Virus record (IMG/VR): IMGVR_UViG_3300033121_001607
DNA from: an uncultured virus (IMG/VR IMGVR_UViG_3300033121_001607)
Taxonomy: Duplodnaviria > Heunggongvirae > Uroviricota > Caudoviricetes
Length of the DNA: 64,000 bases
Strand: one strand, 5' to 3'
Shown piece by piece: positions 2,250 to 28,088 of this stretch (position 1 is the stretch's first letter; each line of letters starts with the position of its first letter). Made by a program: the position numbers and the translations under genes. The notes below the pieces were generated by a model, which worked only from the letters and a program-made list of their open reading frames with translations, did no database searches and had not been told where the DNA came from.

Positions 2250-2731
2250 TGCTCATCCTCGTCTAAAACAATATCGTCATTTTCGTCATCGTCGTTATCG
2301 TCTTTGTCAAACGATATCTCTTTTCTATAACCATACTTTTTATCAAGGTATTCTGAATCAACAATATAAGTTTCCCATTCTGATTTCCAAAAAGCCGGCC
2401 ATGAATCAACAACATGAGGCAATGGCTCAGGAGTTTTCCAGCCAAACTCATTACACCAATAAGTCAAACTCTTTATATCTGCATTATGAGCGTCTTTGCT
2501 TGAGGGGAGATATTCAGCTACATAAACTTTACCCGTATTGTAAAAATGACAAATAAGAATTGCGAAGCCAAAAGGGCTCATAATAGTAACTTTTGAACGG
2601 ACCATCCATTCGCCCTTATGACTCGCAACGCCAAGCTCTTCAGCGTCAGCAGCCATAATTTTGCAAACCTTTTCATAGTTACCGTTTGCTTCAAGTAAAG
2701 TTATATCAGAAAACTGAATCTCAAATTCCAT
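2246..2731 (-). CDS. Hypothetical protein with acidic C-terminal tail
   Basis: 161 aa ending DKDDNDDDENDDIVLDEDEQ; abuts the upstream methyltransferase stop. Confidence 0.75.
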   Translation of the reverse strand: MEFEIQFSDITLLEANGNYEKVCKIMAADAEELGVASHKGEWMVRSKVTIMSPFGFAILICHFYNTGKVYVAEYLPSSKDAHNADIKSLTYWCNEFGWKTPEPLPHVVDSWPAFWKSEWETYIVDSEYLDKKYGYRKEISFDKDDNDDDENDDIVLDEDEQ

Positions 2732-3580: not shown

Positions 3581-3582
3581 GA

Positions 3583-4341
3583 TTACTCCGAGAATATATC
3601 TTTTACTACGTCTAGTCTTTGTTTTGCTAAAGCGATTGCTTCAGTGCTTTTATCGCTTCCAACAGGAAACCTCTTAGCCGCTAACGCTGCTTCTAAAAAA
3701 CTACCGCTACCGCAAAACGGATCTAAAACTCTGTCTCCAGGATTACTCCATATGGAAACCACTCTTTCCATAAGTTTAAGAGGCTTTTGAGTTGCATAGC
3801 CATTCTTTTCGGGCTCATTCCTGCATATGGCAGGAATATCAACCCACCAATCCTCAAGCAACTTACCCCTTTGCTCATAATGTTCCCAAGGGATTTTCTC
3901 TTTTGACCAAGCAGCGGCTCCGCCAACATTCATTTTTGTTTTGTAAGGAACTCTCGGTTGATTAAATGCATATTCTCCAAGACCGTACCATAAGATCGTA
4001 TGGTGCTTCCTAGGGAGCCATCTTTTAGCGCTTGCAGGGTTACTAAAACCCCATATGATTTCGTTCCTGAAATTATCCCTTCCAAAAATCTTGTCCATTG
4101 AAACTTTGACATAATGTATCGCTTTGTAATCCATATGAACTACAATATTTGAGTCCTTCTTCATTAGCTTCTTGATAGCATCTAGCCTATCAGTCATATA
4201 AGAAACAAACTCGTCGAAAGACGAACCAACTCCATAGTATTCGTCTTCAGATTCACAGCTATAAGGAGGATCTAGATACACTAAATCAACAGGCTCCGTT
4301 ACCAGCCCAAGACAATCGGTATTATGAAGCTCATATTTCAT
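3583..4341 (-). CDS. DNA methyltransferase, N6-A/N4-C family, beta order (DPPY)
   Basis: VDLVYLDPPY, FRNEIIW, YATQKPLKLMER and VLDPFCGSGS. Confidence 0.92.
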   Translation of the reverse strand: MKYELHNTDCLGLVTEPVDLVYLDPPYSCESEDEYYGVGSSFDEFVSYMTDRLDAIKKLMKKDSNIVVHMDYKAIHYVKVSMDKIFGRDNFRNEIIWGFSNPASAKRWLPRKHHTILWYGLGEYAFNQPRVPYKTKMNVGGAAAWSKEKIPWEHYEQRGKLLEDWWVDIPAICRNEPEKNGYATQKPLKLMERVVSIWSNPGDRVLDPFCGSGSFLEAALAAKRFPVGSDKSTEAIALAKQRLDVVKDIFSE

Positions 4342-7452: not shown

Positions 7453-8778
7453 TCAGCAAGCGCAAAGGATATTATTCAAAAAGATACCACAACTATCGTC
7501 GCACGTTATTGTAAACGTCTTTTCAACTGTAGTGGATTTTATGTTGCGGACTTTGATTCCAACAACAGAAGATTCAACAAGCTTTGATAGAGAAGAACTT
7601 TTGCTTTTCTTTTTAATATACTTGTTCAAATAAGTAGCCATATCATGATTCATAACAACATCGTCTTGTTCAAAAAGAGCAAGCTTCTCATACTTTTCAG
7701 CAGCCATGCCAATTTCTTCCTTGATATTTGAAAGAGATTTACCAAACTTATAACCCAAAAGATCAAAAGCAAAAATATGCTTATTTGTAAGTTTTGTCAT
7801 GAAATCATTAATTTTTATAGCAAGAGATTTGATTAAATAAGGTATAAAAGTGAAAAACGCTTCAATATGACCGCTATCAATAATTATGTAAGAAGAACCG
7901 GATTCAAAAGGCACTATTCCCATGATAAGCAAGCATTTGCAAAGTCTATCAGAAGAAACTTCACCGCCGCGATGTAGAGAAATACAAGGCTTACTATTCT
8001 CTTTGTCAATGAAACCAAAAGCATTGCTTGCATGAAAATATCCGGCAAGATAGTATGCTATAATCTCTTTATTTTGAGAAGCAACTTCTTTCAAGAAAGA
8101 ATCAATCAACATAGCAACAACTTTGTTTTTAGCCCTAACTAAATCCCCGACAATCTCTGGTTCAACAAGAAAATTTGAAGACATAAGATGAGCGAATATA
8201 TTATTCACAATCTCATTGTTAGTGCTAAAAAGGATATCACCATTCTCAAGATTATAGGTTCCTTTGCAATCAATAAGACCGGAAATAAATGCTAATCCAG
8301 TTATAAAGCTAATAGACATAGAAGCGTCTGCCTCATGAATCTTGCCTCCAACTCTTTGCTTTATAAGAGAGCCTTTCTTTTTCTTTGGAAAGACTTTTTC
8401 AATCTGGAAATTGCTCTCTCGAAAAGAAAGGAATTTCGGCATTAAAAGCAAATCCTCAGCAACAAGTTCGTCAACAGAAACCTTATTCAACTCTCCATTT
8501 TCATTGACATAAATCATGCAATCCTTGCGCAGTTCAAGGAAAGAACCAAAGCTCTGTATTCTTAATAACTTTGAAGGTTTCGTTTCAACACAAGACTGAA
8601 TTCGAACAGTCTTTGATTGCCAAGTCTCTTGATCAAAACCGACTACTTGTAAACTGCCATTTTTAAGAATATTTGGCAACTCGGAAACTCGATAACTGTT
8701 TCCATAGACATCGTGCAGAAAAGATTTCCCGCCAACGCCTACAATACTAGAGCTTATCTTGACTTGGCCTTTCGACAT
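7453..8778 (-). CDS. Free-standing, degenerate intein-like protein (HINT plus two LAGLIDADG motifs), no exteins
   Basis: N-terminal HINT-like region (GVGGKSFL...LQVVGFD...LLRIQ...SVDELVAEDLLLMPK), LAGLIDADG-like FISGLIDCKG and YLAGYFHASN, block-H-like LLIMGIVP, and a C-terminal block F/G-like KTFTITCDDSCGIFLNNILCAC followed by the stop. Confidence 0.8.
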   Translation of the reverse strand: MSKGQVKISSSIVGVGGKSFLHDVYGNSYRVSELPNILKNGSLQVVGFDQETWQSKTVRIQSCVETKPSKLLRIQSFGSFLELRKDCMIYVNENGELNKVSVDELVAEDLLLMPKFLSFRESNFQIEKVFPKKKKGSLIKQRVGGKIHEADASMSISFITGLAFISGLIDCKGTYNLENGDILFSTNNEIVNNIFAHLMSSNFLVEPEIVGDLVRAKNKVVAMLIDSFLKEVASQNKEIIAYYLAGYFHASNAFGFIDKENSKPCISLHRGGEVSSDRLCKCLLIMGIVPFESGSSYIIIDSGHIEAFFTFIPYLIKSLAIKINDFMTKLTNKHIFAFDLLGYKFGKSLSNIKEEIGMAAEKYEKLALFEQDDVVMNHDMATYLNKYIKKKSKSSSLSKLVESSVVGIKVRNIKSTTVEKTFTITCDDSCGIFLNNILCAC

Positions 8779-9283
8779 GAGCGTGTTCTCTTAGTGGTTT
8801 GAGTATTACAAAAACAATATTATCTGAAACCTTTAATTCGTCCCATTTTGCAACATCTCCAAGATCAGACACAGCCTTATTGAGAAGTTCTTTTGCATTC
8901 ACAATAAATGCATTCTCTCTTCCCTTTAATTCTATTCCAAATTTAACAAAACATTTCTTTTCTAGCATGGCTCTAATTTTTGTCTTTTTCACTTGAATAT
9001 CATGCTCTCCAGTTTTCAAGTGAAACATCATTTCTTTTGTTTCAATAGGCTTATTGTTGCTTTTTTTCTTTGAGGCTTCAAACTTAAGTTTACCAGCATC
9101 TGCGAATTTACAAATAGGGATACCCTTGTTATCTTTAGAAACCTGAACAAGATCAAAACCTTGTTCCTTCGCTTGGGAAATCGCAGATTTTTTATTAATT
9201 TCCCCCTTGCTAACTCCGTTCTCGTCAATAACAATTACAGAATAGCCATAAATCTCTTCGTTCACAAACATTCTGCCAATCAC
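8747..9283 (-). CDS. infC: Translation initiation factor IF-3
   Basis: VNEEI...VIDENG...AKEQGFDLVQVS...PICKFADAGKLKFE...KEMMF...GEHDIQVK...LKGRE covers both IF3 domains. The SD TAAGGAG is followed by CTT ATT GTG ATT, pointing to a non-AUG start. Confidence 0.92.
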   Translation of the reverse strand: MIGRMFVNEEIYGYSVIVIDENGVSKGEINKKSAISQAKEQGFDLVQVSKDNKGIPICKFADAGKLKFEASKKKSNNKPIETKEMMFHLKTGEHDIQVKKTKIRAMLEKKCFVKFGIELKGRENAFIVNAKELLNKAVSDLGDVAKWDELKVSDNIVFVILKPLREHAHVERPSQDKL

Positions 9284-10167: not shown

Positions 10168-11286
10168 TTACCTCTTTTGGGCATTATTCTGACCAATAAT
10201 CAAGTATTCTACGCCTGATGAATTCTCGGCTGAACGATACTTATAATCATACTGCATCGTCTTAACTATTACGCTTTTTCTAAACTCACCTACTAACTCT
10301 TTAATCGTCTCAATTTCAGCCCAACTACTATCGTTGTAACTAATTGCTAAAATTGCATTTGGATCTAGACTATCTAACAACTGCCAAAAATGATCCTTAT
10401 AAGTTTTGGCTTTTGAAAAAGACTTTGAAGCCGCTTTTAGATATTTAATATCTTCGAAAGATTTTCTAGCTAAGTATTCTTCTAAAAACTGATACATGAA
10501 AGCATAATCGCTTTGCTGTCCGCCATATGGAGGATCAATATAAATAAGATCAAAACTGCGACCAACCATTTTACAAAAATCAAAAACATCATTATTAAAG
10601 AACATCGACGGAGGCCCTTCGCAAGGAAAATAAGAAGGCTTCATTGCCTGAAAATTCATTTCGCTATTATTGTTTCTCTGATGCTGCAAACGATGTTCAA
10701 GAGAAGCAATAATCTGCCCACTATTGAGCCGGCCGCCAACAAAACAATGAGACATAATAAATTGCATCATTGTTGAATGAGCAACACAAGCCCTAACATG
10801 ATCATTTGCAAAGCGCTCTTCTACATTTGTAAAATAACTATCTATAAAGATCGCTTCTTTATCAGTTAAACGAGAACCCGCATGTGTCTTTTCCATAAAG
10901 GAATCAGATTTTGAGTTCTTATTAGATATCAGGAATTTCCAATCTTCGTCGGAAATCTTGTAATTCCAACCTTGAGTCAAAGAAACCCCATTCATGTAAG
11001 AAGAGCGAAGTAGCTCATTAGAGTAGACTTCTTTACCAAACTTTTTGAAAAATGCCCCAACAACGGCAGATCCAGCAAATAGATCAAGCACCGAACTAAA
11101 AGAATCAAAAGGAACTTCATTATTTAGCTCGATGGCAATATCTGCCAAGATTTTGCGCTTATTACCGACATATGGGTTGTTCAAGATATTGAAATCAGAT
11201 TGAGTATTCAAAGCCTTTTCAACGAAAAGCTCTTCTTTGGTTTCAGCAAACAGATTTCCATACTGTTCTCGATTTTTACGAGCCAT
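10168..11286 (-). CDS. DNA adenine methyltransferase (D12/Dam-like, alpha order)
   Basis: NPYVGNKRKI and VLDLFAGSAVV (motif I) near the N-terminus, then DLIYIDPPY (motif IV), ISYND and EYLII. Confidence 0.9.
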   Translation of the reverse strand: MARKNREQYGNLFAETKEELFVEKALNTQSDFNILNNPYVGNKRKILADIAIELNNEVPFDSFSSVLDLFAGSAVVGAFFKKFGKEVYSNELLRSSYMNGVSLTQGWNYKISDEDWKFLISNKNSKSDSFMEKTHAGSRLTDKEAIFIDSYFTNVEERFANDHVRACVAHSTMMQFIMSHCFVGGRLNSGQIIASLEHRLQHQRNNNSEMNFQAMKPSYFPCEGPPSMFFNNDVFDFCKMVGRSFDLIYIDPPYGGQQSDYAFMYQFLEEYLARKSFEDIKYLKAASKSFSKAKTYKDHFWQLLDSLDPNAILAISYNDSSWAEIETIKELVGEFRKSVIVKTMQYDYKYRSAENSSGVEYLIIGQNNAQKR

Positions 11287-14362: not shown

Positions 14363-15559
14363 TTAATCTCTATTATACTTGAGGTTGACATTGTAGGTCC
14401 AAGTGATACCATGTCCGGGATGGACGCCAAAAAGCTTCTGCTCTGGCAGGTTTCCAGGCATATTATTACTTAAAGAATAAACATCTCCTCCAACAAATGA
14501 GCCATTTACAATAGCCTTACCGCTATGAGTTGTGAACTCGGAGGCGTTATGAAAGTGCCCCGCAATAGTGTAATCAGGAATAATTTTGGTCAAGCCTGCC
14601 ATTCTCTTTTCAAGCTCAAATACACCCTTAACCGGCGGGTCTTTAGATTTGACATCATCACCGTGAATCATGAGAAACTTATGCTTCTGTATTTCTTTGA
14701 TCATCCACCAAGATTTTGTTGAATGTATCTTGAGTCTAGGCTCATTGCGGAATTCTTGTTCAAGATTCTTATAACAAATGTAGTCAAAGTTTGCATATTT
14801 CTTCTCTGCACCACTCTGGGCAATACGTCCATGATTTCCGTAAATAGCATAGAACTCAACTTCTTGAAAAATACTAAGCATATAATGAACGAAGTTTGAA
14901 ATATGGTAACAACCAAGCGAGATTTGGTCCATAATTGGTGTATTTATCCAAACTGGAGACCATGCGCCTGCTGTATTAGCTCCATCAACAATATCTCCAA
15001 GAGACATAATATGAAGCTTGGGTATCCTATACAGGCTTGAATGTAGTTCGTAAATATTAGTTATTGCTTGCTTAAGATTTTCCAAACGTTGAATAAAAAT
15101 GTCTACATTATATTCAGATAATCCGCCTGTTTCTTCAAGCGTATGCTCATGGCCTATATGAAGATCGCTAAGGACGAGAACCATATGCTCGTCTGCTTTA
15201 CTAGTCTTTGGAGTAGGGGTATAAAGAGGCGGCGGAACAGCGGGGAGATTTCTAGCAGCTTGAGTAATCTTATCGCCAATGATGTCGGCGCTAAGCCTAA
15301 ACTTGTCCAAAGCCTTATTAACAAAAACCTGCTGTTTTACTGCGCCGGTCTCTATTTCCTCGCGCTTAGCGTCTACTTCCTCTTGATTATAGAAGCTGTA
15401 ACTTGTCCAATCGGTATCTCGATTGTACTTATTCTCCAAAGCCTTTACTGTTCTATCAAGCTTCTCGGCAATAACTTTATACGGAGTACCAAGCATTCTT
15501 TCCTTATAAAGGTATTCAAGTTCTTCTTCGGTCCATTTTCTAGTTTCAAAGTTTGACAT
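14363..15559 (-). CDS. Calcineurin-like metallophosphoesterase with N-terminal Myb/HTH-like domain
   Basis: RKWTEEE...IAEKLDRT (HTH), then SDLHIG, LGDIVDG, GNHGR, IHGD and AGHFH. Confidence 0.88.
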   Translation of the reverse strand: MSNFETRKWTEEELEYLYKERMLGTPYKVIAEKLDRTVKALENKYNRDTDWTSYSFYNQEEVDAKREEIETGAVKQQVFVNKALDKFRLSADIIGDKITQAARNLPAVPPPLYTPTPKTSKADEHMVLVLSDLHIGHEHTLEETGGLSEYNVDIFIQRLENLKQAITNIYELHSSLYRIPKLHIMSLGDIVDGANTAGAWSPVWINTPIMDQISLGCYHISNFVHYMLSIFQEVEFYAIYGNHGRIAQSGAEKKYANFDYICYKNLEQEFRNEPRLKIHSTKSWWMIKEIQKHKFLMIHGDDVKSKDPPVKGVFELEKRMAGLTKIIPDYTIAGHFHNASEFTTHSGKAIVNGSFVGGDVYSLSNNMPGNLPEQKLFGVHPGHGITWTYNVNLKYNRD

Positions 15560-16271
15560 CTTTCATCCTTTTCTTAAGGGCAGACATTACAGCATTGTGA
15601 TCGGCTAGCTGCATTGTTTTATTTTTTCTAGTCATGCCGCATGGATTCACTCTGTACTTGATCAGATAATCTTGCAAGTTTGCAAACTTCTTGCCGCACA
15701 AACTCGCTCTGCACCAAAAGTCTAAATCATGCGCATACTTAATTTTATTATCAGGGGAATAACCTCCAACCTCTCTGTAGCCCGATAGTCTGTACATAGA
15801 ACTTGGATTGATAATCGGACATTTTGATTGAAGCATAAGCATTCTCACGATTTCTTTGTGAGAAGCTGGAGGAAAATCCCAATCTCCAATAAAATTTCCC
15901 AATAAATCAATCTTTTTAGCCCTACCTCCAACACAAAAAATATCAGGATTTTCTTCAAGATAGTTGAACTGTAACTCAAGACGATTTGACATGCTTACGT
16001 CATCGGCGTCATGAATCGCAATATACTCTGTAATAGCTAAATCTATCGCCTCTTTAGACCTGGCTAAAACTCCCCTATTTTCTTGATAATCAACAAAGCG
16101 TATTCTTGGATCAGTAAAAGACTTAATTATTTCTGAGGTTCCGTCTGTAGAGCCATCATTGATAATAATGAACTCAAAATCTGAAAACGATTGCCCCAAA
16201 ATAGACAAGATAGACTCTTTTATGAGTCTTTCGCAGTTGTAAGCAGGAGTTATAACACTTATCCTAGCCAT
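15546..16271 (-). CDS. Glycosyltransferase family 2
   Basis: ISVITPAYN, IINDGSTD, IAIHDADD and HDLDFW. Confidence 0.93.
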   Translation of the reverse strand: MARISVITPAYNCERLIKESILSILGQSFSDFEFIIINDGSTDGTSEIIKSFTDPRIRFVDYQENRGVLARSKEAIDLAITEYIAIHDADDVSMSNRLELQFNYLEENPDIFCVGGRAKKIDLLGNFIGDWDFPPASHKEIVRMLMLQSKCPIINPSSMYRLSGYREVGGYSPDNKIKYAHDLDFWCRASLCGKKFANLQDYLIKYRVNPCGMTRKNKTMQLADHNAVMSALKKRMKDVKL

Positions 16272-17386
16272 GTTTTCTTTGAATTGAAAAAATCACTATA
16301 TTTCTCTCTAATCTCATTCCAATTATAATCGGCAAGAACATTTTGATATCCGTCTTTGCCCAGCGAATCTGCAAGAGACTTATCAGAAAGAAGCTCATCT
16401 ATATGCTTCTCAAAAGCCAAAGAAACAGAGGCGTCAAACTTTTTCATCTCTCTCGGCCCCAACGCTGAATCAACACAAAAACCACCCTTCAAATCAGCAA
16501 CATGACCAACGTTCAAAGCAATCCACGGTCTCTTAGCAGCCATTGCCTCTAAAAGAACTATCGGCCCACACTCTTGTTGAGACGGAAAAATAAAGACATC
16601 GCTTGCAAAATAAGACTGAACAACATGAGATCTTGGAATATCGTTCAAAAACCTTACAGGAAGCCCTCGACATTGATGAGTAATCATTTCTCTCAGTCTA
16701 TTACCCGGCTGAAAAGCAAGCGTTGAAGATATGAAGACAAATGTAAAATCCTTGCGCTTCTTATTTAGTTTAGCTATGATTGGAGTCAAAAATTCCTGGC
16801 CCTTTCCAGGGAAAAAATTAGAAACACAAAGCAGCATTCTTTCCGTGTTTATACCATAATGAGATTTGAAGTCAAAATCGGACTTAACAAACTCATTCAT
16901 ATCAACCGAGTTATGAATTATTCTAACAGGAATTCCCCAGTCTTTACAAGTCTTAGCATCAATATAAGACTCGGCATGGGCTAAGACCTTGAAATGCTTA
17001 TAATTGCGTCTAAAAAGCTCAGCAGAGGCCTTATGCTGGGGCAATTCCGATCTCATTCTATTCATTCCAACAAGAGCAATGCTTTTATCAGAGTTGATTT
17101 TCTCAAGGTTCTTCAGTATAGCTGGCCACATAAAGAACCAATCGCTGTAAACCATAATATGATCAGCGGCCTCAGAAATAAGAAGCTCCATAAATTGTTG
17201 TTCATTCAAAGAGCCAACAGGAACAACTTTGACGCCATTGTGATATGCAGAATAAGAACCATGTTGGCAAAATACAGTACACAAATTGCCTTTAGAAGCA
17301 ATATATTCGGTTATCTGTTGAACTATTCGCTCGGCTCCACCTGTATGAAAAGGTTGAGCAAAATTTGTACAAACGATAAGTTTCAT
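16259..17386 (-). CDS. Glycosyltransferase family 4 (GT-B)
   Basis: GGAER, IHNSVD, KGQE and DVFIFPSQQECGPIVLLEAMA (EX7E motif). Confidence 0.92.
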   Translation of the reverse strand: MKLIVCTNFAQPFHTGGAERIVQQITEYIASKGNLCTVFCQHGSYSAYHNGVKVVPVGSLNEQQFMELLISEAADHIMVYSDWFFMWPAILKNLEKINSDKSIALVGMNRMRSELPQHKASAELFRRNYKHFKVLAHAESYIDAKTCKDWGIPVRIIHNSVDMNEFVKSDFDFKSHYGINTERMLLCVSNFFPGKGQEFLTPIIAKLNKKRKDFTFVFISSTLAFQPGNRLREMITHQCRGLPVRFLNDIPRSHVVQSYFASDVFIFPSQQECGPIVLLEAMAAKRPWIALNVGHVADLKGGFCVDSALGPREMKKFDASVSLAFEKHIDELLSDKSLADSLGKDGYQNVLADYNWNEIREKYSDFFNSKKTWLG

Positions 17387-17387
17387 A

Positions 17388-18098
17388 TTATCTCATTGGC
17401 AAAAATGTCTTACCAGCCCATTTCTTCTTAAACTTATCGTAACTCTGCGTAAAAAACTTCATCCTATCCTTATCTTTACCCAAGGTCTGATGAGGTAAGT
17501 GGTCTATTTTTGCTAGATTATTCCAGCCTATTTTGAAACCAGCCTCTCTTGCTCTAAAATTGAAATCAGGATCTTCAAAATAAGCAGGATTAAACTGCTC
17601 GTCAAAAAGACCTAGCCTATCAACAACTTCTTTCTTTACCATCATTCCACCGCAACCAACATATGTATATGGGTCGCCTTTTTTCTTGCAGTTGTGCCTT
17701 GGCATAAAGCTCGAATCCATAAGCCAAGCGTCCGCTCCAACCAAATCATAACTACCGCTTTCCATAAACTCATGATACTGCTCAAGCCATCCCGCTCGAA
17801 CAAATTGGTCATTATCAAGAAAGCACAAAAGTTCTGTTGGGTCAGATTGATAAAGAGCGTAACCCATGTTACGCCCGCCAATAACCCCAAGATTCCGATC
17901 GTTTATAACAAGAGTGTGTCTCTCAAACATAGAGAGAGCGTCCGTCAAATACTCTTTTGTTCCGTCCGTAGAACCGTTGTCAATCATAATAAGATTGAAA
18001 GCAGAAGGCTCCGTGTATTTGAAAAGTAGCTCTATAAATTTCTCCGTCACGGCCTTGCCGTTATAGGAGAGAACTACTACGGTTACTTGCTTCGTCAT
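17388..18098 (-). CDS. Glycosyltransferase family 2
   Basis: VVVLSYN, IDNGSTD, GRNMG, FLDND and LFDEQFNPAYFEDPDFNFR. Confidence 0.93.
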   Translation of the reverse strand: MTKQVTVVVLSYNGKAVTEKFIELLFKYTEPSAFNLIMIDNGSTDGTKEYLTDALSMFERHTLVINDRNLGVIGGRNMGYALYQSDPTELLCFLDNDQFVRAGWLEQYHEFMESGSYDLVGADAWLMDSSFMPRHNCKKKGDPYTYVGCGGMMVKKEVVDRLGLFDEQFNPAYFEDPDFNFRAREAGFKIGWNNLAKIDHLPHQTLGKDKDRMKFFTQSYDKFKKKWAGKTFLPMR

Positions 18099-18311: not shown

Positions 18312-21300
18312 CTATACTATTTCAACAGTATTCGATTGGGTTGCCGTACCTACGCTAATGCCGTCAAACGGGATTACTTCGGCTTTCCATCTCTGACCAG
18401 AAGCAGTATTCACAGCCGGAACAATTCGAACATTCTGCAAAGAAGAAACCTCTTCAAATGTAGATGAACCACTCAAAGCCCTAAACCATCTAATTGAACT
18501 CTGGTCATTCTGAGTGCTTCCCTGCTGCTGAGATTCAGCATCAACATAGGTATACGTCAACTGTAAAGCAGACGCAGAAGAAGCGGTTGGACTCGGCGAC
18601 ACGGTTACGTTTCTAACCGTAGGAGGATCGTTCTCTACGGAAACGGCAGCGCTTGTTACTGGATTTCCAATAATATTTTGAGAAGCAGGAAGTATTGTAA
18701 CTTCAAGAACATTACCAATAGCAATACCAACAATGTTATTCTTGACTTCACCAGGTATAATTTCGTTATTGGATATTCCACCAACCGTAATACCAAGGTC
18801 TCCTCTCTTGAACTCAACTCCGTTGACATACCAAATAATCTGAGAGCTAGTATTACCGTCGCCGTCTTGGAAGTATGCAAAATCAGCAAACGCCCTTGTC
18901 GTTGTTGTTACAGTATCTTGTACTGTTCCGTCGTTCTTCTTCCCCTTGATTGTTATAGTTGTTATGAATGGAGGAGCCTCTATTGCAGTAACAGAAGGGG
19001 AGCGTACAACATCGCTAAACAAAATTCCATCGCTAGCCTTAATCGTCGCATAAACAACATCTCCAACCTTCAATATACTTTCTCCCTTTTCTCTTGCATA
19101 TTGCTCATAACTTGTTCCAGCAGGAACATTTTCAGGTCTAAATGACAAAGCATAAACCCATATTGGATCATTAATGTCATTGATGTTATTCCAAGTTCTT
19201 AGGTTGCGCAAGTATTCTATTTCAACTCCATTGATATACCAGCGTATAATGGTTTGGTCTGTATCCTCGCTTCTCTGATTAATGTCAAAATACTTGTAAG
19301 ACAAGCTAATCGACTGATAAATCGTTAGCGTACTTGGGGCAACTCTAAAGCTAGTAATAGTTGGAGGCCTCTGCGACAATGGAGGCGGCAAGAAAACATT
19401 AGTGTTGTACATATACGCAACACCGTCTATCTCAACAGGATTGTAAGAATCCATATTGAGTATTCTAACCCCAAGCCTTAGATTTCCTGAATTCTCTATT
19501 GAAACAGAGAATGGCCCGAGTTGCTTAGAAGAGAATACAACAAGTCCTTCTTTAGGATAAAGTTCATATCCGTCAGAAGCAATAGCTTCTCCGTCTTTAT
19601 CGAGAATAGCTACTCTTGAAGTAACGTCCCATTTACCATATCTGGCCTTCCACATAAAACCATTAATATTGTCAAGAGGTTCATTAAGAGTTGTATCCTG
19701 CTCTTGATTGTAACGAATAGGTATGAATATTTTTCCATATCTATCCGAAGCAGGTTGAGCGCCGCTATAATAATCAGACCAGTTATAGGAAGAACTTGTT
19801 GTCGCTCCAACCTGTATGGTGCTAAGATCGGGCTTATTGGCAGATACCGCAACGGCTATTTGCTGAGGGCTAAAATCAGTTGTTTCTGGTTTCAAGTATA
19901 TAAAGCTTTCAGTTGGTACGCTATACTTGATATTGATAGCGGTTAGAGCGGGAACTCCGGGCGTTGGAACAAGATCATATTCGTTCTCTATATAAGAACT
20001 CAATCCGCTCAAAAGCGTAACCTTAAACTTGATGTATCTAGCATTGACATTTACAAGCGATATTTCTGTATTAGGATTGAACGAGTCGCTGTAATCAGAA
20101 TAGTTAAAGCCGTCTTCGCTTGTTGCCATCTTCCAGCCGCCGTCCGTATTTGGGTATAGCTCATAATCCAGAGATACGGTATTGATAATGCTATTCTTAT
20201 TCAAGTCAATAATGCACTCATATAGTCCCCAACCGATTGAGCCTTCTACTCGACCCAATGAGTTGTTCAATATCTCATCAATATAAGCGGCGTCTAAAAT
20301 AGTCTGGCTTTGTCCGCCAGTCTGGTTGGCAATAGCGTCTAGGGAGTCTGTGTCTGTTCGACTTACCAATGCTGATAAAGTTACAGGGAAAACAACAGAG
20401 AAGTTATTGATAACAACAGGAACCTTACCAAAACCGTCAATTGCTTGAACGTCCTGTATCGCAGTATCAGATGTATTAATTGAAAGATTCTCTTCGTTAT
20501 CCGTATTGACGTAAATAACCTTAGCATATTGATCGAGATCTTCGTCAAGCATGATTGCTGCGTTTTTAACAAGAGCATCATAGAGCGGCGAAGCTCCAAA
20601 AGGAATTTCGTTTCTAAGCCTTGTTAGACCCTTAGCCATGTCCTCGAATTCTCCGTTCTCAACATGAACGATAATCTGAGGTATCCATTCAATATCGCTG
20701 AAATATTGTACCTCAGGACTTTCTAGCTGAGGGGTTTGCGGAGGATTAAGATCAAAAACCGGGTTATCGTTCTCTTTTAGAGATTGGTCAATGGGTTGAT
20801 TATTTTCAGAATCCCTTCCTGGATTGTAGTTATTTTCATTGGAACTTTGTTCAACAGCTTGGCTTCCTTCAACGCTTCGGCATCCTTCGAATTCTTGGAT
20901 ATTTCCACTACTAGAAGATCCTCCCGAATTGTCATTACCTGAATCTGGTGAAGAATCAGTCGAACCGCCCGTTGTGTTATTCGTTATAGAATCTTCATTG
21001 TCTTTGATATCTATTACTGTTTGACCGTAATAGAAGTCGTCAATAACCGTTATACGAACTTTAATGGCATAAGGATTTCTAACTTCACCTTCCTTAATAA
21101 GAAGAGTATTATTGCCTTCATTTCCGCCCTCGCCAGCAACAGTGTCCTGTATGCCAAGCTTCTCTTTAATCTCAGATATTTTCTTCAAAATATCATCCGC
21201 TCTTGGGAGCATAATGGTAGACGCAACGCCGTTGTAAATGTAAAAATCATTTGAACTAAAGACAACAGGATAAACAAGAGCGTCTCTAATCGCTTGATTA

Positions 21301-24300
21301 TCAGATTGTTGCTGAGATTGGTCCCCGCCGGTGACTTTATTTTCTATTTGCGAATTCGGGAATAAAAGCACACCTTGAACCAGGACTCTAACTCCTTTAT
21401 TTGGATGCTCTCCTACATCATTAAGCAACTCTATTGAAACGGTTGCTGATTGTTTACCATCAAGACGAATATAAGAAGGGCTTACTCTTGCTTTAATTTG
21501 CAGGAATCCGGCTGGACGACCGCTTGTAAGGCCTCCGCAAGAATAAACATATCTCCAGTTATCGCTAGAACAACCAAATGCTGTCTTAGCTATAGGCATT
21601 CTTTCGCCTTCAGCATATGAATATACAGGAGAACTCTCAGTAATTATATCAAGAATATTAAGAACTTGAGATTTATCGCTTGTCCCGCCCAAAAAATAGT
21701 GCTGGTCTAAAATGCTAACACAAGATCCTCTATATCTGGGAGAGGGGATTTGCCTGTAGATATAGTCGTCAAGTACAATTTCAAGCGTATCTAAATCTAT
21801 TTCAAATGAGTCTGTAATAAACTGTAAAGGCTGTTCGCCTGTTTCCTCATTTTTCTCGCCCGGTATTGCTCCGCCAACAACATGAATCTTTGCCTGATCT
21901 GCTTCTACAAATGCAAATGGAGAAACCCTGCTGTAAAGAATCAAATCTTCATCAACAAACTGATTACTCCAACTCCATGTTAGAGTCTCAAAATCGAAAA
22001 CCAAAACTCTATCATTAACGGCGTCAATGCTGCCTCTAGTCCCTATCTTTCTTATACCTCCAATAATATATGCTTTACCATTTGAAACGACGCAAGCGCC
22101 TAAAGCAACTCCATATGTATTTTGGTCGAATACAGGCATTGGAGAGAGTTCTTCCCAGGTATTATTATCAATGTCGTATCTTTCAACCGAACTAGAAATT
22201 ACAAGTTCTGTTCCATTAGCCGTTATACCCCCAAAAACATATATATAACCATAATCCTGAACTGCCATATGATAAAATCTTGGCGTATTCATTGACTTCT
22301 TAATATGCCATTTATCCTCGCCAATATCATACATCTCATTATAAGACAAAATGGATTTGCCATTAAGACCGCCTATAGCGAATAATCTTTCACCATAAGC
22401 GTCAAAGTCCCAGCTTGTCGTCAAGCAACCTCTTGGATAGTTCATGGAAGCTTTTGCTGCCCACTCATTAGTGTAAGTATCATAAACATCAAGGGTAGCG
22501 CTAAAGACGTTGCTAATTTCACCTTCTGGTTTATCCTCAGGGCCTTCCTCTTTTGGCTGAGAGGGATCATACTTGATGCTAACACAACAAGTCATACTGC
22601 GTTCAACGTCGCCCCTCTTATCATAATTTGTTTCTGCTTGAACTTGAGCTTCAAAAGCCGACTCAGGACCAAAAGGAGCAACAAAGAACGACGCAAAACT
22701 TCTAACATCACCTTCAGGATTTAATATTGAATCATTGAGTTTTTCTGTAAAAATTGTATCATTTTGTAATATGATCTTTTCTGCATTCTTACCGCCAATA
22801 GTTAAGAAAACAGGAGTTCCATTAGGAACAGGACGAGCTTTGAATGTTACTTCAAGAACAAACTCATGAACAGCAACTCCGTCGCAAAGAAGCTTCTCAA
22901 CAGACTGTCCATTTCTTCTTATGTCAACAACAGATATATCAAGAGGCTCTTTCAAATCAATAGTTGTTGGAGGGATACCCGTCTTTAGATCGCCACCGCC
23001 GCGAAGATACCTTGTTTCTCCATTAAAATTGATAGTCGTTCTACCATCAATAACGGATAGTCCTTCTTTCTTAATTAAACCTGGTGGAACTTCTATACAA
23101 TCGCAAGAATTCGAAGACTGATTAGGATCTCCATTATCATTCCCTGAACCCGAATCAGGCTGAGGTCTTCCTACAAACTTGTTTATTCTCAAGTAGAAAG
23201 TTGTTGTTTCACCAGACTGAACGAGAGGAATTTGCGCAAAGCCTTCAGATTGATTTGCATTATTAACAATATACTCTTCTATGTCTTCATCATAAACAAC
23301 TTCTAAGTTATCACCATATAGTATTTCAAAACTATCACCAGATTCTATTTCGACTATCTGTCCATTATCAAGAACAAAGATCGGTCTATTAGCGTTCTCT
23401 GCGCATTGTCTGAAACAATCAGCCGTAGAGCCAACAGTTATATTTGGATCATGATAAACGGTGCAGCGAACAAGACTATATCCATCAGCATAAAGCGTGT
23501 TTACATATTGAGGCATGTCCATGAGAAATCTTGAACCAAAACCTCTTCCTCCAAAATTAGCGGGATAGATAATGGCCGGTCTTTCTTCAAAAGCGCTAAG
23601 GCCGTCATAAACAATCGAAGCCTTGATGGCGTAAAGCTCAGGAAGATAGACAATATTGCCTGGGCATGGTATATAGAGTTCCCATGTAACTCCGCAAGCA
23701 GGACCAAAGAAGATTTTTCTTGCCATACCACCTTTTGTATAAGAAAAAACACCCGGTCCCGATGGTACATTATCTGTTGAATAGAATGGTCTATCCTTGG
23801 CGTTTCTTCCTTTTCTTAGATTCCAACGAACAATTTGCTGATCAGTAACGGGAATTTTTCTTGGTTTATCAATATTGGGGCTATCTGGATCAATGAGATA
23901 AATATTAGCCATCTGTTCAGAAACATCAATACAGTTTGATTCTGGCGGCTCTATCGTTGTTTCAACTCTTAAAATATTCTCGAAGACTATATACATCTTC
24001 TTGCGAGCATAATAACCATTAAAACCAACCTTTGTAAAGAGCATTATTGCTTGAGGAGTTTTTGGAACGCGAAGAGGGATGTCCGTGTATGTAACTTGCC
24101 TTGTTGTTCCATCATTCAATCTCTGCAATCCAATTCTAAGAGGGATCGAAGTCGCAGGAGGCTGAACTGATCGGCTTCGCCTCGTTGAAAATGTTGGAAC
24201 AAATGGTTCTTTTTCATTTGAACCACCTGTTTGAGAACACGGATTACTTCCTGATGATTTATCAGGATCGCATTGAGGATCAGAAGCTTCAAAAACTGCA

Positions 24301-27300
24301 ACACCACAGTTTCCTCCGTCAGGTAATGCCTGTCCTCTATAAGTAACAACAACTCTAGCCATAAAAGGCCTTGAACGGCGAATCCAACAGCCATTAAACT
24401 CAGCAAACTTATCAGGATCAAAAAGAAGACCACCAGAAGATATAAACTCCTGATCATCAAGAGGAACGGTTTGTTTACACAATATTTTAACTATATCACC
24501 ACTACCAGAAGCCTGATTATCTGGTAAAGGAGCGGTTGTTGAGACAGCGGATCTTCTTCTCTTAGATTTTCTTCGAGTTCCAGAACTTGTTATAGTTCCA
24601 AAATTTGCAGCATTATCACCTATATTAACAAGCTCCATAGCAAATGGATTTCTCATTTCTATAGTTACAGGCAATGATTCAAATTGGAAAGCATTCTCAG
24701 AAGGATTATCCCTATTAGGAATTCCATACGAAACATTTATCTGAGCAGAAAGAGAATTTATAGCAGAAAGTATATCAAGATCAGGTGTCATTCTAAACAC
24801 ACCTCTTATGAGACCGTTTCCGATAACCGTAGAAGAAAGAACATAACAATCTTTTGCTTCTGGAATTAAAGCGGTTGTACCAACAACGTCACCAAATACG
24901 TCTTCTGCAAGTTGTGCAGAATCAACGTTTGCTTTAACAGAAAACTTAATTTTACTTGCATCGGAAATAGGAGCGCCATATTCGTCTGTTATTTCAGCAT
25001 ACAAGGCGACTCGCTGATCAAACCACGCTTCAATCTCTTTCTGAAATTTAACAGGAGCGTCCCAGCCAAGACTTATCGCGTTTTCATTAACAACTTCATA
25101 TCTAAATTGCTTAACTTCAAGAAGCGGTATTCCTTCTTCGTCTGCGTCATCGAGGGGAACTGCTGAAACATAAACGGGATCAGACAAATTGCCATATCTA
25201 TCTGCGGCAACAATCGCATAGTAATTTACAATCTCATTTTCAAGATTTCTGTCAACAAATTCTATTTGACTTGGATTCCCGCTAAAAACCAATAATGCAG
25301 AAAAACTAACCCCATCGTCATTATTAATGATTGGCGGACCCGTATCAGACCAATAGACAAAAACTTGCTCAACAATGCTGTTATTAATTGCATTCCATGT
25401 CAAATATGTCTTATGATTACCCGCTCTAATCTGAACATTTTCAACAGCCCCAATAAAAGGCGTTGTTATGGCCTCGTTTCTATCGTCTTTACTCTTAAAA
25501 GCAGGAATCTTAATAGACAAAATAGGAGAATCAGAATCTAAACTAAAATTTCCTATAATATTTTGTGAATAAATACGAAAATTGTAAATTCTATCATGAA
25601 CATAATCAAAAGGAAGCGTTACAACAAAATCACCTGGCGCTGAATCTGTTTCGTAAACCAAATCTCCGTCTTCCTCATTTGAGGGTTTTTCTCCAAAGCC
25701 TTCAAAAACAAGAACAGGTTCGCCAAAGGAACCGTCGCTATTTACAGGTGTTTGATAAGAAAACATACCAACACCGGCTTCGGCTTTTCTTATAACACGA
25801 ACCTTGCCTCCCTCAAAATTATAATCATCAGGTACGGAGTATTTAACAGCAACGATTCTATCTCCATTATCCAATACCTTATCAGAAACTCTTTCATAAC
25901 GAACTGCGGCAGACGCAATATAATTTGCAGATCGAATAGTATCATGAACGCTTATTTCAGTAAGCTTACCAAAGAAATGAGAGGCTTTTCCTCCAAGATA
26001 TATATGCATTGGCTCTTGGCTGTAATAACCCAAAGCCGTCAAAGAACCGCCGCCAGCTTCAACTCCATTAACATAGAACGTCGCAGTAAGAGCCAAGAAA
26101 TCAACAGTAACAGCAACGTGACTCCATGCATTCGCTGTCAAAGCGATATTGGAAGAAGCGAATGTTAGATCGTCAAATGTAAAGAATAATGTTCCGTCAG
26201 TATTTGTTCCAAACCTAAACGACATCTTATCTAAAGAGTTGGTCTCTCTAGATATAATGCTTCTCTTATCTAAGAAATTAAAAGGATACGCCCAGGCCAT
26301 GAAGGTGTATTTTGTCTTAATGAACTTACCTTCTTCGTCGTACCCTAAAAGCTTAGTATCAACTCCGTCGAATCTAATACCACTAATGCCGCTTGGAACA
26401 TCATTATTGTTGAGCCAAACAACATCTTCGCTTGAAGACAAAAGAACAGGATTGTCGCTAAAATCATATGCAAATGTTCCTGTTGATTCATTAAGATGCC
26501 AAAGTCCAATGGTATTAGAATCTCTTTTAGCACCTGAACCCGTAATTGTTCTATAAGTAAAACCGCCAACTCCATGAGGATAAATCTTGACTCTAGGAGA
26601 AGCCTTCAAGAACCTACCATTGCTGAAAGTGCCATTTGAATCAAAAGTATATGCGGCGTAGTAGTATTGTTCGTTTTCTTCAAGTTCGTCGTCAAATGCT
26701 CTTTCGACAAAACCTTCCGTAACTATATCGCCGTCAAGAGGCCCTGTAGGATAAGCCCCAAGCTTTCTAATAATTCGAACACCAGCGTAACCGCTTTCCT
26801 GATCCGCGAAAAAGGCAGAAGCAACATCTGCTGTATTATTTGTATTTATCTGATCAGTCTCTACGACTGCAAAGAAATTCAACTTAATAGGAGTAGATCC
26901 AAGACTTAGGAGATTATACTTAACTTCACCGGGATAGGTCGCTTCAAGCCTATCAATCATCCGTCTTGTTATCTCGTGTCTTAGTCCGCCGCTATCATTC
27001 CAGCTAAGAGAACCGCTTTGATCCATAACAATAGAAACTAATCTATCGGGAAGATTCAAGGCAACCTTATTTGTAGCTGAATCAATATCAACTATCTTGG
27101 TTTGTAAAAATACAGGCTCTAGATCGTCTATGTCAAACTTTTGAACAACTTTTGCTGCAACAGCCGACGCTGGAACAATCAACTTACAAGCGTTCTCGTC
27201 TATAGAATCTCTAAAAGAGTAAAATCTAATAGCGTAATTTCTGGTACAATCAAGATTCCAAATTTTTAAAGATGAATCATATGATAGAGAGCAAGAAACG

Positions 27301-28088
27301 TTGTAAGGATCGAAAATGGGCTCTTCATTTTCAGCATAGTCCCAAATAAGATACAAATTATCGCTTGAACCAGAAACGAAAAGAGCAGCCGCATAATGTA
27401 AGGTGAAGCTAATAGAAGAATTTCCAGGCAAAGGGTCTAAAGCAAAATTGTACCAATTGTCGTCTTTGATTTCTTCTATTGTTGTTTTGTAGTTATATAT
27501 TGGAAGCGAATCGCCAGGAGATATATTATCATCGATTTCATACATTCTAAAATGCAAAGTCAAAAACTTGCTCTGATACTCTATAGAATCAGGCATTGTT
27601 TCAGAAGAACTTATAATTACAGAATCTATATAAGATTGCTGTGTTTTGGGCTTTATAGATAATTCAAACTTCTTGTTATCCTTAATAACTATTGTAGCAG
27701 AAACCCAAGACCACAGACCAGGAGTCACTGTTGCTGTGTTATCAGAACTTGTAAAACCATCAACAAATAATTCATAAGAAAACTGAGAAACATCCGTTTG
27801 AGTTCTAACTCTAAGAAAGACGGTATACTTGCCGGCCTTAGTTGCCGTAACAGGATAAGATAGAACAGGATATGACGGCGTTCCAATGGCTTGAGAAATA
27901 GCCATAGAGCCTGAACCATAAGAACCATCTACAACAATATCGAATATCGCCGATGGATCGCCTTGCTCAAGTCTCGAAAAGTTAGAGGCATCAAATGCCG
28001 CAAAACCGTCTTCCGGCACTAAGAAAGAAGCCGAAGAATCGGTCTTGCCAACGGTTCGAATAAAAACAGAAGCTTTGGTGAGTATCAT
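18312..28088 (-). CDS. Giant 3258-aa multidomain putative virion protein (split vWA, FN3-like, LamG, Kelch propeller, Ig-like repeats)
   Basis: MIDAS motif DQSGS; LamG (GLWHLNE...FDG...TFMAW...WSHVAVT...FYVNG) at ~25920-26520; six Kelch-like GG blades at ~21525-22500; second vWA half GASPLYDAL...NTDNEEN...IANQTGG; three C-terminal Ig-like repeats; no signal peptide. Confidence 0.85.
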   Translation of the reverse strand: MILTKASVFIRTVGKTDSSASFLVPEDGFAAFDASNFSRLEQGDPSAIFDIVVDGSYGSGSMAISQAIGTPSYPVLSYPVTATKAGKYTVFLRVRTQTDVSQFSYELFVDGFTSSDNTATVTPGLWSWVSATIVIKDNKKFELSIKPKTQQSYIDSVIISSSETMPDSIEYQSKFLTLHFRMYEIDDNISPGDSLPIYNYKTTIEEIKDDNWYNFALDPLPGNSSISFTLHYAAALFVSGSSDNLYLIWDYAENEEPIFDPYNVSCSLSYDSSLKIWNLDCTRNYAIRFYSFRDSIDENACKLIVPASAVAAKVVQKFDIDDLEPVFLQTKIVDIDSATNKVALNLPDRLVSIVMDQSGSLSWNDSGGLRHEITRRMIDRLEATYPGEVKYNLLSLGSTPIKLNFFAVVETDQINTNNTADVASAFFADQESGYAGVRIIRKLGAYPTGPLDGDIVTEGFVERAFDDELEENEQYYYAAYTFDSNGTFSNGRFLKASPRVKIYPHGVGGFTYRTITGSGAKRDSNTIGLWHLNESTGTFAYDFSDNPVLLSSSEDVVWLNNNDVPSGISGIRFDGVDTKLLGYDEEGKFIKTKYTFMAWAYPFNFLDKRSIISRETNSLDKMSFRFGTNTDGTLFFTFDDLTFASSNIALTANAWSHVAVTVDFLALTATFYVNGVEAGGGSLTALGYYSQEPMHIYLGGKASHFFGKLTEISVHDTIRSANYIASAAVRYERVSDKVLDNGDRIVAVKYSVPDDYNFEGGKVRVIRKAEAGVGMFSYQTPVNSDGSFGEPVLVFEGFGEKPSNEEDGDLVYETDSAPGDFVVTLPFDYVHDRIYNFRIYSQNIIGNFSLDSDSPILSIKIPAFKSKDDRNEAITTPFIGAVENVQIRAGNHKTYLTWNAINNSIVEQVFVYWSDTGPPIINNDDGVSFSALLVFSGNPSQIEFVDRNLENEIVNYYAIVAADRYGNLSDPVYVSAVPLDDADEEGIPLLEVKQFRYEVVNENAISLGWDAPVKFQKEIEAWFDQRVALYAEITDEYGAPISDASKIKFSVKANVDSAQLAEDVFGDVVGTTALIPEAKDCYVLSSTVIGNGLIRGVFRMTPDLDILSAINSLSAQINVSYGIPNRDNPSENAFQFESLPVTIEMRNPFAMELVNIGDNAANFGTITSSGTRRKSKRRRSAVSTTAPLPDNQASGSGDIVKILCKQTVPLDDQEFISSGGLLFDPDKFAEFNGCWIRRSRPFMARVVVTYRGQALPDGGNCGVAVFEASDPQCDPDKSSGSNPCSQTGGSNEKEPFVPTFSTRRSRSVQPPATSIPLRIGLQRLNDGTTRQVTYTDIPLRVPKTPQAIMLFTKVGFNGYYARKKMYIVFENILRVETTIEPPESNCIDVSEQMANIYLIDPDSPNIDKPRKIPVTDQQIVRWNLRKGRNAKDRPFYSTDNVPSGPGVFSYTKGGMARKIFFGPACGVTWELYIPCPGNIVYLPELYAIKASIVYDGLSAFEERPAIIYPANFGGRGFGSRFLMDMPQYVNTLYADGYSLVRCTVYHDPNITVGSTADCFRQCAENANRPIFVLDNGQIVEIESGDSFEILYGDNLEVVYDEDIEEYIVNNANQSEGFAQIPLVQSGETTTFYLRINKFVGRPQPDSGSGNDNGDPNQSSNSCDCIEVPPGLIKKEGLSVIDGRTTINFNGETRYLRGGGDLKTGIPPTTIDLKEPLDISVVDIRRNGQSVEKLLCDGVAVHEFVLEVTFKARPVPNGTPVFLTIGGKNAEKIILQNDTIFTEKLNDSILNPEGDVRSFASFFVAPFGPESAFEAQVQAETNYDKRGDVERSMTCCVSIKYDPSQPKEEGPEDKPEGEISNVFSATLDVYDTYTNEWAAKASMNYPRGCLTTSWDFDAYGERLFAIGGLNGKSILSYNEMYDIGEDKWHIKKSMNTPRFYHMAVQDYGYIYVFGGITANGTELVISSSVERYDIDNNTWEELSPMPVFDQNTYGVALGACVVSNGKAYIIGGIRKIGTRGSIDAVNDRVLVFDFETLTWSWSNQFVDEDLILYSRVSPFAFVEADQAKIHVVGGAIPGEKNEETGEQPLQFITDSFEIDLDTLEIVLDDYIYRQIPSPRYRGSCVSILDQHYFLGGTSDKSQVLNILDIITESSPVYSYAEGERMPIAKTAFGCSSDNWRYVYSCGGLTSGRPAGFLQIKARVSPSYIRLDGKQSATVSIELLNDVGEHPNKGVRVLVQGVLLFPNSQIENKVTGGDQSQQQSDNQAIRDALVYPVVFSSNDFYIYNGVASTIMLPRADDILKKISEIKEKLGIQDTVAGEGGNEGNNTLLIKEGEVRNPYAIKVRITVIDDFYYGQTVIDIKDNEDSITNNTTGGSTDSSPDSGNDNSGGSSSSGNIQEFEGCRSVEGSQAVEQSSNENNYNPGRDSENNQPIDQSLKENDNPVFDLNPPQTPQLESPEVQYFSDIEWIPQIIVHVENGEFEDMAKGLTRLRNEIPFGASPLYDALVKNAAIMLDEDLDQYAKVIYVNTDNEENLSINTSDTAIQDVQAIDGFGKVPVVINNFSVVFPVTLSALVSRTDTDSLDAIANQTGGQSQTILDAAYIDEILNNSLGRVEGSIGWGLYECIIDLNKNSIINTVSLDYELYPNTDGGWKMATSEDGFNYSDYSDSFNPNTEISLVNVNARYIKFKVTLLSGLSSYIENEYDLVPTPGVPALTAINIKYSVPTESFIYLKPETTDFSPQQIAVAVSANKPDLSTIQVGATTSSSYNWSDYYSGAQPASDRYGKIFIPIRYNQEQDTTLNEPLDNINGFMWKARYGKWDVTSRVAILDKDGEAIASDGYELYPKEGLVVFSSKQLGPFSVSIENSGNLRLGVRILNMDSYNPVEIDGVAYMYNTNVFLPPPLSQRPPTITSFRVAPSTLTIYQSISLSYKYFDINQRSEDTDQTIIRWYINGVEIEYLRNLRTWNNINDINDPIWVYALSFRPENVPAGTSYEQYAREKGESILKVGDVVYATIKASDGILFSDVVRSPSVTAIEAPPFITTITIKGKKNDGTVQDTVTTTTRAFADFAYFQDGDGNTSSQIIWYVNGVEFKRGDLGITVGGISNNEIIPGEVKNNIVGIAIGNVLEVTILPASQNIIGNPVTSAAVSVENDPPTVRNVTVSPSPTASSASALQLTYTYVDAESQQQGSTQNDQSSIRWFRALSGSSTFEEVSSLQNVRIVPAVNTASGQRWKAEVIPFDGISVGTATQSNTVEIV

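Follow-up and report, generated by a model that had tools for sequence, protein, structure and literature searches.

Can a single von Willebrand factor A (vWA) domain be assembled from two stretches of polypeptide that lie some 2,000 residues apart? The question is raised by a 64,000-nucleotide stretch of DNA from an uncultured phage (IMG/VR record IMGVR_UViG_3300033121_001607; hereafter the window), in which one open reading frame (ORF) at 18312-28088 on the minus strand encodes a giant multidomain protein of 3,258 residues, P0001. All features given below for this gene lie on the same strand. An initial annotation of the window had proposed that two stretches of the protein, about 6.2 kb apart, are halves of one vWA fold, neither of them complete. 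The ORF list and translation place every motif that it quoted in this single frame at that distance, and complementary profile matches, the fold of the C-terminal piece and a co-fold prediction bear out the divided domain. We consider it likely that the gene encodes a giant, probably surface-exposed or fibre-like phage protein with one discontinuous vWA domain, whose halves co-fold as an obligate, permanent joint carrying a ligand-binding MIDAS (an adhesion site dependent on a metal ion).

The first quarter of the fold (the N-piece, residues ~347-397; 26898-27050) was delimited by its match to Pfam VWA_2 and by predicted contacts, and comprises strand 1, which ends in D356-x-S358-x-S360 (codons at 27009-27023), helix 1 and strand 2. 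The DxSxS strand, LVSIVMDQSGSLSWND, occupies residues 350-365 (26994-27041) and the motif VKYNLLSLG residues 389-397 (26898-26924). The remaining three quarters (residues ~2470-2612) reside in a C-piece, residues 2460-2615, delimited by AlphaFold2, structural alignment with VIA-align and the VWA_2 matches of relatives; it contains strand 3, helices 2 and 3, strand 4, helix 4, strand 5, helix 5, strand 6 and a last helix. Within it lie LTRLRNEIPFGASPLYDAL (residues 2488-2506; 20571-20627), KVIYVNTDNEEN (2523-2534), VPVVINNF (2556-2563) and LDAIANQTGGQS (2583-2594; 20307-20342). This part had been put at about 20260-20650; the region stands, with a start about 20 residues earlier and a span of 20244-20711. 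Depending on the boundaries chosen, the separation of ~6.2 kb corresponds to 2,044-2,090 residues.

A Pfam scan of the whole protein matched only Kelch families (residues 1861-2042) and Laminin_G_3 (592-725), with no vWA family at E up to 1; a domain that is split cannot score as a single stretch. Taken by itself, the window N-piece aligns with positions 3-52 of the VWA_2 profile, which has 107 (E 0.0057, 17.7 bits). Across the family, VWA_2 was matched by 22 of 23 N-pieces (best E 1.9e-7) and VWA by 12 of the 23, and VWA_2 was also matched by two of 22 C-pieces, those of L022 at positions 53-106 (E 0.001) and L027 at 56-106 (E 0.0046); two further C-pieces gave faint matches to the vWA-like families DUF1194 and Ku_N. 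As judged from these profiles, the N- and C-pieces cover complementary halves of one VWA_2 profile (3-52 and 53-106), a two-half pattern that is well beyond chance. Against PDB sequences, the N-piece profile returned 11 weak matches (E 0.02-1.6), several of which we take to be vWA proteins (PTMP1, CLCA-like, CobT and ITIH4).

The predicted structure of the C-piece points to the same fold. Modelled alone by AlphaFold2 with a 22-row alignment, it reached a predicted local distance difference test (pLDDT) score of 76.8 and a predicted template modelling (pTM) score of 0.73, with elements in the order helix, helix, strand, helix, strand, helix, strand, helix. Foldseek placed ITIH1, TFIIH subunits, vWF A3, NorD, TEM8 and integrin I-domains in the top ranks (E 2.4e-3 to 5e-2). 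When the model was aligned by VIA-align with Foldseek's 1,000 best chains, 118 had Z of at least 8; the best 50 of these 118 gave Z 11.8-9.7 and a root-mean-square deviation of 2.2-3.1 over 120-136 aligned residues, and by title they include vWF A domains, integrin I-domains, ITIH1 and ANTXR2. TFIIH p44/p34 and ArnB chains, presumably also vWA folds, are among the VIA-align matches. Residues 10/11-156 of the model align to the last ~130-135 residues of the targets, as in the CD11b I-domain (8ce9_A, 46-185 of 190), 5hj2_C (53-197 of 197) and vWF A3 (1atz, 974-1108), leaving the first ~45-50 target residues uncovered, which is the part that the N-piece would supply.

The initial annotation had suggested predicting the two halves as separate chains. 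Residues 336-415 and 2460-2615 were co-folded as two chains in three runs and three controls, with our own 30-row alignment (A1), which consists of the window protein and 29 full-length relatives of 2,400-3,333 residues from a word-index search, 30-93% identical to the window. The halves are predicted to co-fold, with MIDAS residues contributed by both pieces: the interface score ipSAE was 0.79, 0.65 and 0.80 in the three runs versus 0.00 for the best of the three controls, the runs had at least 88% of contacts in common, and partner pLDDT was at least 66. The co-fold mark is reached by 116 of 157 solved complexes and two of 215 mismatched pairs, counts that are only a rough guide with an alignment of our own. 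The lowest-error contacts pair residues 350-354 with 2523-2528 in parallel and 391-395 with 2476-2473 in antiparallel orientation. In a vWA sheet, strands run in the order 3-2-1-4 with only strand 3 antiparallel, and the predicted contacts match this arrangement, the fold being Rossmann-like α/β with six strands in the full order 3-2-1-4-5-6.

The C-piece opens with the strand at residues 2470-2478 (WIPQIIVHV), the third strand (βC) of the sheet. As this strand fills the position of strand 3, the chain is interrupted in the βB-βC hairpin (strand naming of CD11b), and not after strand 3 as the earlier boundaries implied. By its topology, this hairpin would lie on the MIDAS face. An exit segment, residues 398-415 (STPIKLNFFAVVETDQIN; 26844-26897), leads from strand 2 into the insert; it is conserved in a further alignment, A3, its residues up to 403 belong to the predicted interface, and its pLDDT is below 50 when it is folded without the C-piece. 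Together with residues 2462-2469 before strand 3, likewise conserved and partly within the predicted interface, it may form a neck.

Neither half is completed by sequence next to it, an outcome that would have spoken for two separate domains. Residues 300-545, folded alone with a 23-row alignment, gave a pLDDT of 61.8 and a pTM of 0.31; helix 1 was predicted, residues 394-433 had pLDDT below 50, and a four-stranded all-β domain without α/β alternation followed at residues ~436-496 (26601-26783; pLDDT 75-85). The N-piece is thus adjoined by an all-β domain and the C-piece is preceded by a low-complexity linker, and we reject local completion of either half. A second vWA half inside the insert was likewise rejected: family hidden Markov models (HMMs) for the N- and C-piece match once each per protein (domain E 0.01), and Pfam finds none. 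Since the N-piece gives central strands of the sheet, the pieces would be an obligate unit that must co-fold, and the poor fold of residues 300-545 alone is consistent with neither piece being a stable domain by itself.

The residues expected at a MIDAS, following the motif definition in the accessible text of bioRxiv 10.1101/2023.10.19.562135 and PMC12607857, are divided between the pieces and strictly conserved. The pattern D-x-S-x-S, then S, then D is provided by D356, S358 and S360 of the N-piece, by S2500 (codon 20589-20591), which lies in a G-A-S motif at the place of the MIDAS threonine, and by D2530 (codon 20499-20501), the last MIDAS residue, in a T-D-N motif after strand 4. All five are invariant in the 30 rows of A1, where the invariant columns also include G359, G2498, K2523, T2590 and G2592; the 50-residue bins 351-400 (0.70) and 2551-2600 (0.78, the highest) are among the best conserved of the protein, and the halves are separated by 1,895-2,314 residues in every row.

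Conservation extends beyond these relatives. Run against 1.84 billion representatives, a C-piece profile gave 189 proteins with E ≤ 0.001, 113 of them at 1e-10 and 58 at 1e-30; among the 150 matches listed of the 189, none is an ordinary continuous vWA protein, and all 150 belong to the two-piece family. In a set of 178 proteins, all chosen via the C-piece, 97 carry both pieces in one chain and the other 81 the C-piece only. Position 356 is D in 96 of the 97 N-pieces, and 358 and 360 are each S in 95 and T in one; among the 178 C-pieces, 2500 is S in 174 and T in three, and 2530 is D in 176 with gaps in the other two. The remaining non-matching positions are gaps in truncated sequences. The five MIDAS positions are near-invariant in sequences down to about 22-25% identity. 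The gap between the pieces in the 97 one-chain relatives is 1,455-2,888 residues. Homologues with shorter inserts at the same site had been anticipated; among these 97, none has fewer than 1,455 residues, and natural two-gene versions were found instead.

The insert that separates the halves (residues 416-2459, ~2,044 residues; 20712-26843) is conserved as protein along its whole length and comprises an FN3-like β domain, LamG, undefined β-rich regions, a Kelch propeller, an Ig-like region and the low-complexity linker. The FN3-like, LamG and Kelch content proposed by the initial annotation is recovered in part by Pfam, as Laminin_G_3, a concanavalin-like lectin domain (residues 592-725; 25914-26315; E 7.7e-16, 59 bits), and as Kelch_1 with related Kelch families in the Pfam-matched part of the propeller (residues 1861-2042; 21963-22508; E 1.4e-24); its FN3-like component corresponds to the all-β domain of the AlphaFold model directly after the N-piece. 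The linker that leads back to the C-piece (residues 2366-2455; 20724-20993) is 81% S/G/N/D/E/Q/P/T, poorly conserved and gap-rich in the 30-row alignment. The possibility that the insert is an intein, removed by splicing, was rejected, as a Pfam scan at E up to 1 lists neither a Hint nor an intein family; by Pfam and alignment, the insert consists of conserved LamG, Kelch and β domains.

Nature has also placed the two pieces on separate genes. Among 26 loci of this family surveyed in viral contigs, 16 have both pieces in one ORF, two are cut by the contig end and eight are split. In this first split clade (L021, L022, L024-L028 and L031), an ORF of 1,922-2,081 residues that matches P0001 ~273-2198 holds the N-piece, and the next ORF, in another frame and with 975-1,060 residues matching ~2207-3257 by tblastn, holds the C-piece. 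The break corresponds to residues ~2198-2207 of P0001 (21468-21497), between the Kelch propeller and the Ig-like region. Six of the eight junctions consist of a stop and then, after 2-10 nucleotides, an ATG with a conserved N-terminus (M..EYK..KLDGKQS); that of L021 has only an overlapping GTG. At L028 (16943-17128), an ATG directly follows the upstream stop and a further in-frame stop occurs before 17129, though the tblastn match runs through it, which could be a sequencing error or a broken copy. In a tree of 22 rows, rooted at the midpoint only, the eight split loci group together (support 90/81; recovered as a single group in 94% of 200 bootstrap trees) and the branches within the group are long; the split is therefore inherited and maintained.

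A second split class has its break elsewhere. It is represented by 12 C-only proteins of 1,419-1,534 residues with a common N-terminus, M.IWAQIGD, which start at P0001 ~1730-1810 (22659-22901), just before the Kelch propeller. A metagenome scan with an alignment of this class yielded 28 loci, of which 17 (L047-L063) were examined. Ten of these have the N-piece in an upstream ORF of 1,217-1,307 residues, at ~197-313, and the C-piece in the next ORF, which is 1,421-1,541 residues long in eight complete loci; L056 and L058 end first, leaving 1,126 and 1,040 residues. At all ten junctions, stop and ATG overlap or lie at most 7 nucleotides apart. In five of the 17, the contig ends before the expected place of the N-piece. 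The last two, L062 (563-14536) and L063 (1037-14299), carry both pieces in one ORF of 4,658 and 4,421 residues, fused with the upstream giant gene and with the N-piece near residue 2,000, a layout shared by representatives of 4,625-5,031 residues. A third C-only class, of seven representatives with ~1,070-1,096 residues, is known from protein sequences alone.

Both pieces keep their motifs in the split loci, the second-clade N-pieces retaining D(Q/H)SGS. At the splits, recoding of stop codons or programmed frameshifting is unlikely: TAA, TAG and TGA all occur, the frame changes both ways, and the downstream ORFs have their own ATG and conserved N-terminus, preceded by GGAGG in L050 and L057. 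Scans of viral contigs gave nothing with P0034, only a fused relative with P0124 and only fused loci already known with alignment A5. Outside the vWA halves, residues 1-261 of P0001 (27305-28088) form a separate ORF of 287 residues in L020 (9938-10798), and in the first split clade the N-terminal ~260 residues are the C-terminal part of an upstream ORF of 518-676 residues, so the family has been cut and joined at a third place too. One further relative, P0032 (1,264 residues; from an NCBI metagenome-assembled genome named Candidatus Competibacteraceae bacterium), has LamG, directly followed by Kelch and the C-piece, with no N-piece and with an unrelated Ser/Ala-rich tail; the probable explanation is an incomplete gene call from a phage contig that was binned with a bacterium.

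These observations suggest how the protein could be built. The chain would make strand 1 with its DxSxS motif, helix 1 and strand 2, leave at the B-C hairpin on the MIDAS face, run through ~2,050 residues of FN3-like, LamG, β-rich, Kelch and Ig-like domains and a ~90-residue flexible linker, and return to add strand 3 and what remains of the fold. The pieces would then fold together as an obligate unit, with a putative metal site built from D356, S358 and S360 of the first piece and S2500 and D2530 of the second. The very large loop closed by a vWA domain that had been proposed for this protein is retained in such a model, as an excursion whose ends meet in the domain; the domain would be a permanent joint tying the base of the excursion, and in the split clades the same joint would tie two separate gene products. 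It probably acts to hold together distant or separate parts of a giant fibre-like protein. The conserved MIDAS would most likely bind a ligand carboxylate, from a host surface component or another virion protein. Fission of the gene is seen at two different sites, and we hold with evenly balanced confidence a wider proposal, in which the vWA domain is a natural fragment-complementation joint, of ~50 and ~140 residues on two polypeptides around a shared metal site, that allows giant phages to split and rejoin the largest of their structural genes freely.

Several results weigh against the picture of one co-folded vWA domain in a virion protein. The window N-piece, at 17.7 bits, falls short of the Pfam cut-off of 27, the window C-piece alone has no Pfam match, and the C-piece, as a single sequence or as a 22-row profile, finds no vWA chain among PDB sequences. 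Foldseek gave no row at E ≤ 0.001 for the C-piece model, the best being 2.4e-3, and the ESM Atlas yielded no usable match to residues 2460-3258. The fold and the contacts between the pieces are predictions, and a pass in co-folding can come from the likeness of the halves to solved structures. The fourth MIDAS position has serine, whereas threonine is present at most such sites. Families of tail, baseplate or capsid proteins did not turn up in the 64-kb window, and the sheath profile PF04984 matched none of four related viral records, so nothing here shows virion membership, and the place in the adsorption apparatus that the initial annotation had assigned to the protein is unsupported. Finally, the sequence is compatible with pairing of the halves within one chain and between chains.

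The weak matches of the window sequence, below threshold in Pfam and missing for the C-piece in the PDB, would be expected if the two stretches were not one domain at all, each being a relic or chance likeness that packs on neighbouring domains or another partner. We find this highly improbable: the stretches cover complementary parts of one profile, the fold match at Z 11.8 is limited to the missing three quarters, co-folding scored 0.79 against 0.00 for the controls, the five MIDAS positions are near-invariant, and one piece is always accompanied by the other, on the same chain or on a neighbouring gene. If the domain is real, its halves might pair between chains even in the fused protein, as a domain swap that would serve as a polymerisation or oligomerisation joint and arrange giant subunits head to tail or in rings. 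The two split clades, kept over long divergence, demonstrate that the halves can pair in trans, and the flexible linker of ~90 residues ahead of the C-piece would allow contact with a neighbouring chain; local concentration within one chain nevertheless favours pairing in cis, and the co-fold prediction cannot separate the two. No repeat or coiled coil that would signal oligomerisation came up, although no search was aimed at one. We think a domain swap rather unlikely.

A further reading, put forward in the initial annotation, is a switch based on reversible association of the halves, with adsorption triggered when the loop is closed or opened by metal binding or by contact with a receptor. 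In its favour, the MIDAS residues are divided between the halves and strictly conserved, and in vWA and I-domains a ligand bound at the MIDAS is known to be coupled to movement of the last helix. However, strands 1 and 2, central to the sheet, come from the N-piece, which folds poorly alone, so opening the clasp would mean unfolding the domain, which argues for a permanent joint and not a reversible switch; nor does anything place the protein in the adsorption apparatus. A switch triggered by a cation or receptor is thus unsupported and very unlikely, and we see it as the least likely reading of the joint, as the sheet would need to come apart.

With canonical MIDAS vWA and integrin αI domains (PF00092, PF13519; CD11b I-domain 1jlm/8ce9, vWF A3 1atz, ITIH1 6fpy, ANTXR2), the C-piece shares its predicted fold (Z 11.8-9.7) and the two-piece domain the DxSxS...S/T...D pattern. 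The canonical domain is continuous over about 190 residues and mostly has threonine at the fourth MIDAS position, whereas here the first ~50 residues lie ~2,050 before the rest, or on another protein, and the family has serine. The break falls in the same hairpin as the large B-C loop insertion, next to the MIDAS, of the integrin β-subunit A (I-like) domain. Insertions in integrin β are short loops of tens of residues, in contrast to the ~2,050 residues of folded domains here; the likeness is one of insertion place only, with no sequence relationship beyond the fold. The accessible text of PMC1538996 describes two large insertions in the integrin β A-domain, one of them in the B-C loop.

Nested domains are also found in bacterial adhesins. 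In CpaL, a TadG-like minor pilin of Caulobacter Tad pili, vWA sequence flanks a β-rich region at 204-384 with MIDAS residues on both sides (accessible text of PMC12607857), and in PilY1 of Pseudomonas aeruginosa a small domain lies between strand 1 and helix 1 of the vWA fold (accessible text of PMC11525922). Both resemble P0001 in being vWA domains with a nested domain; as far as these texts describe them, their inserts are about 180 residues or 'small', at other sites of the fold and in one chain, whereas the insert here is ten times its host domain and two-gene clades exist. A general Pfam scan of the whole protein at E up to 1, with no dedicated comparison made, lists neither pilin nor PilY1 families. 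Split inteins such as DnaE reassemble one domain from two gene products, and the family described here likewise has two polypeptides with incomplete parts of one fold that must meet; split inteins splice, whereas here no Hint or intein family is present (Pfam, E up to 1), the fold is vWA and the joint is presumed stable and non-covalent. In the literature, supplements aside, we found no description of the two-piece family, nor of a vWA domain split over two proteins, and for jumbo phages the accessible text of PMC7824862 mentions only MoxR-vWA and TerF vWA proteins. Nested inserts in vWA domains are therefore already known; the scale of the insert, at ten times the host domain, and the division over two polypeptides at two independent places appear to be new.

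The genomic surroundings of the gene are those of a phage. Window proteins with PHROG families include a DNA polymerase, primase, DnaB-like helicase, helicase loader, exonuclease and several DNA methyltransferases, among them two adjacent phrog_67 DNA methyltransferase genes and a third methyltransferase further on (2732-4341, 10168-11286); for the ORF at 8747-9283 the match is to PHROG 9787 (E 1.7e-20), whose annotation is translation initiation factor. The deposited phage collection held no near DNA match and one unrelated-looking protein match over 11% of the query. The gene probably belongs to an uncultured phage of about 0.5 Mb. The related viral records behind L017, L009 and L022 measure 494-548 kb, one of them classed as provirus by IMG/VR; related viral contigs reach 498-548 kb, and one, 498,568 bp long and bearing direct terminal repeats, has a completeness rating of 100%.

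At 29819-61069 lies a row of further giant ORFs of 1,464, 1,531, 2,759 and 2,382 residues, with no PHROG family and with FN3, Ig_Rha78A_N, BNR_4 (weak) and DUF642 as their only Pfam matches. Four glycosyltransferase genes of GT2 and GT4 types (15546-18098 and 61059-62165) bracket the giant-ORF block, and the giant proteins may be glycosylated. The LamG and Kelch content of P0001, the giant neighbours with FN3, Ig, BNR and DUF642 matches and the flanking glycosyltransferases together suggest that the gene encodes a surface fibre or adhesin. Precomputed Pfam lists of relatives add discoidin and other jelly-roll families, and this giant lectin-rich protein is probably a surface or fibre-like protein.

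For annotation, the family carries a lesson, as profile searches of the full-length protein miss the vWA domain entirely, and at least 189 clusters at 50% identity carry it. Domain insertions are common, but the guest that is tolerated is usually similar in size to its host domain; here a domain of ~190 residues has a guest ten times larger, and two clades assemble the domain from two gene products. Should fragment complementation prove true, this would be the first natural split vWA heterodimeriser, a ready-made and possibly metal-dependent split pair. If the halves co-fold as predicted, they would be a candidate natural split-protein pair for engineering, the vWA fold would be usable as a non-covalent joint, and the joint would offer a handle on how phage proteins of 3,000 residues are assembled.

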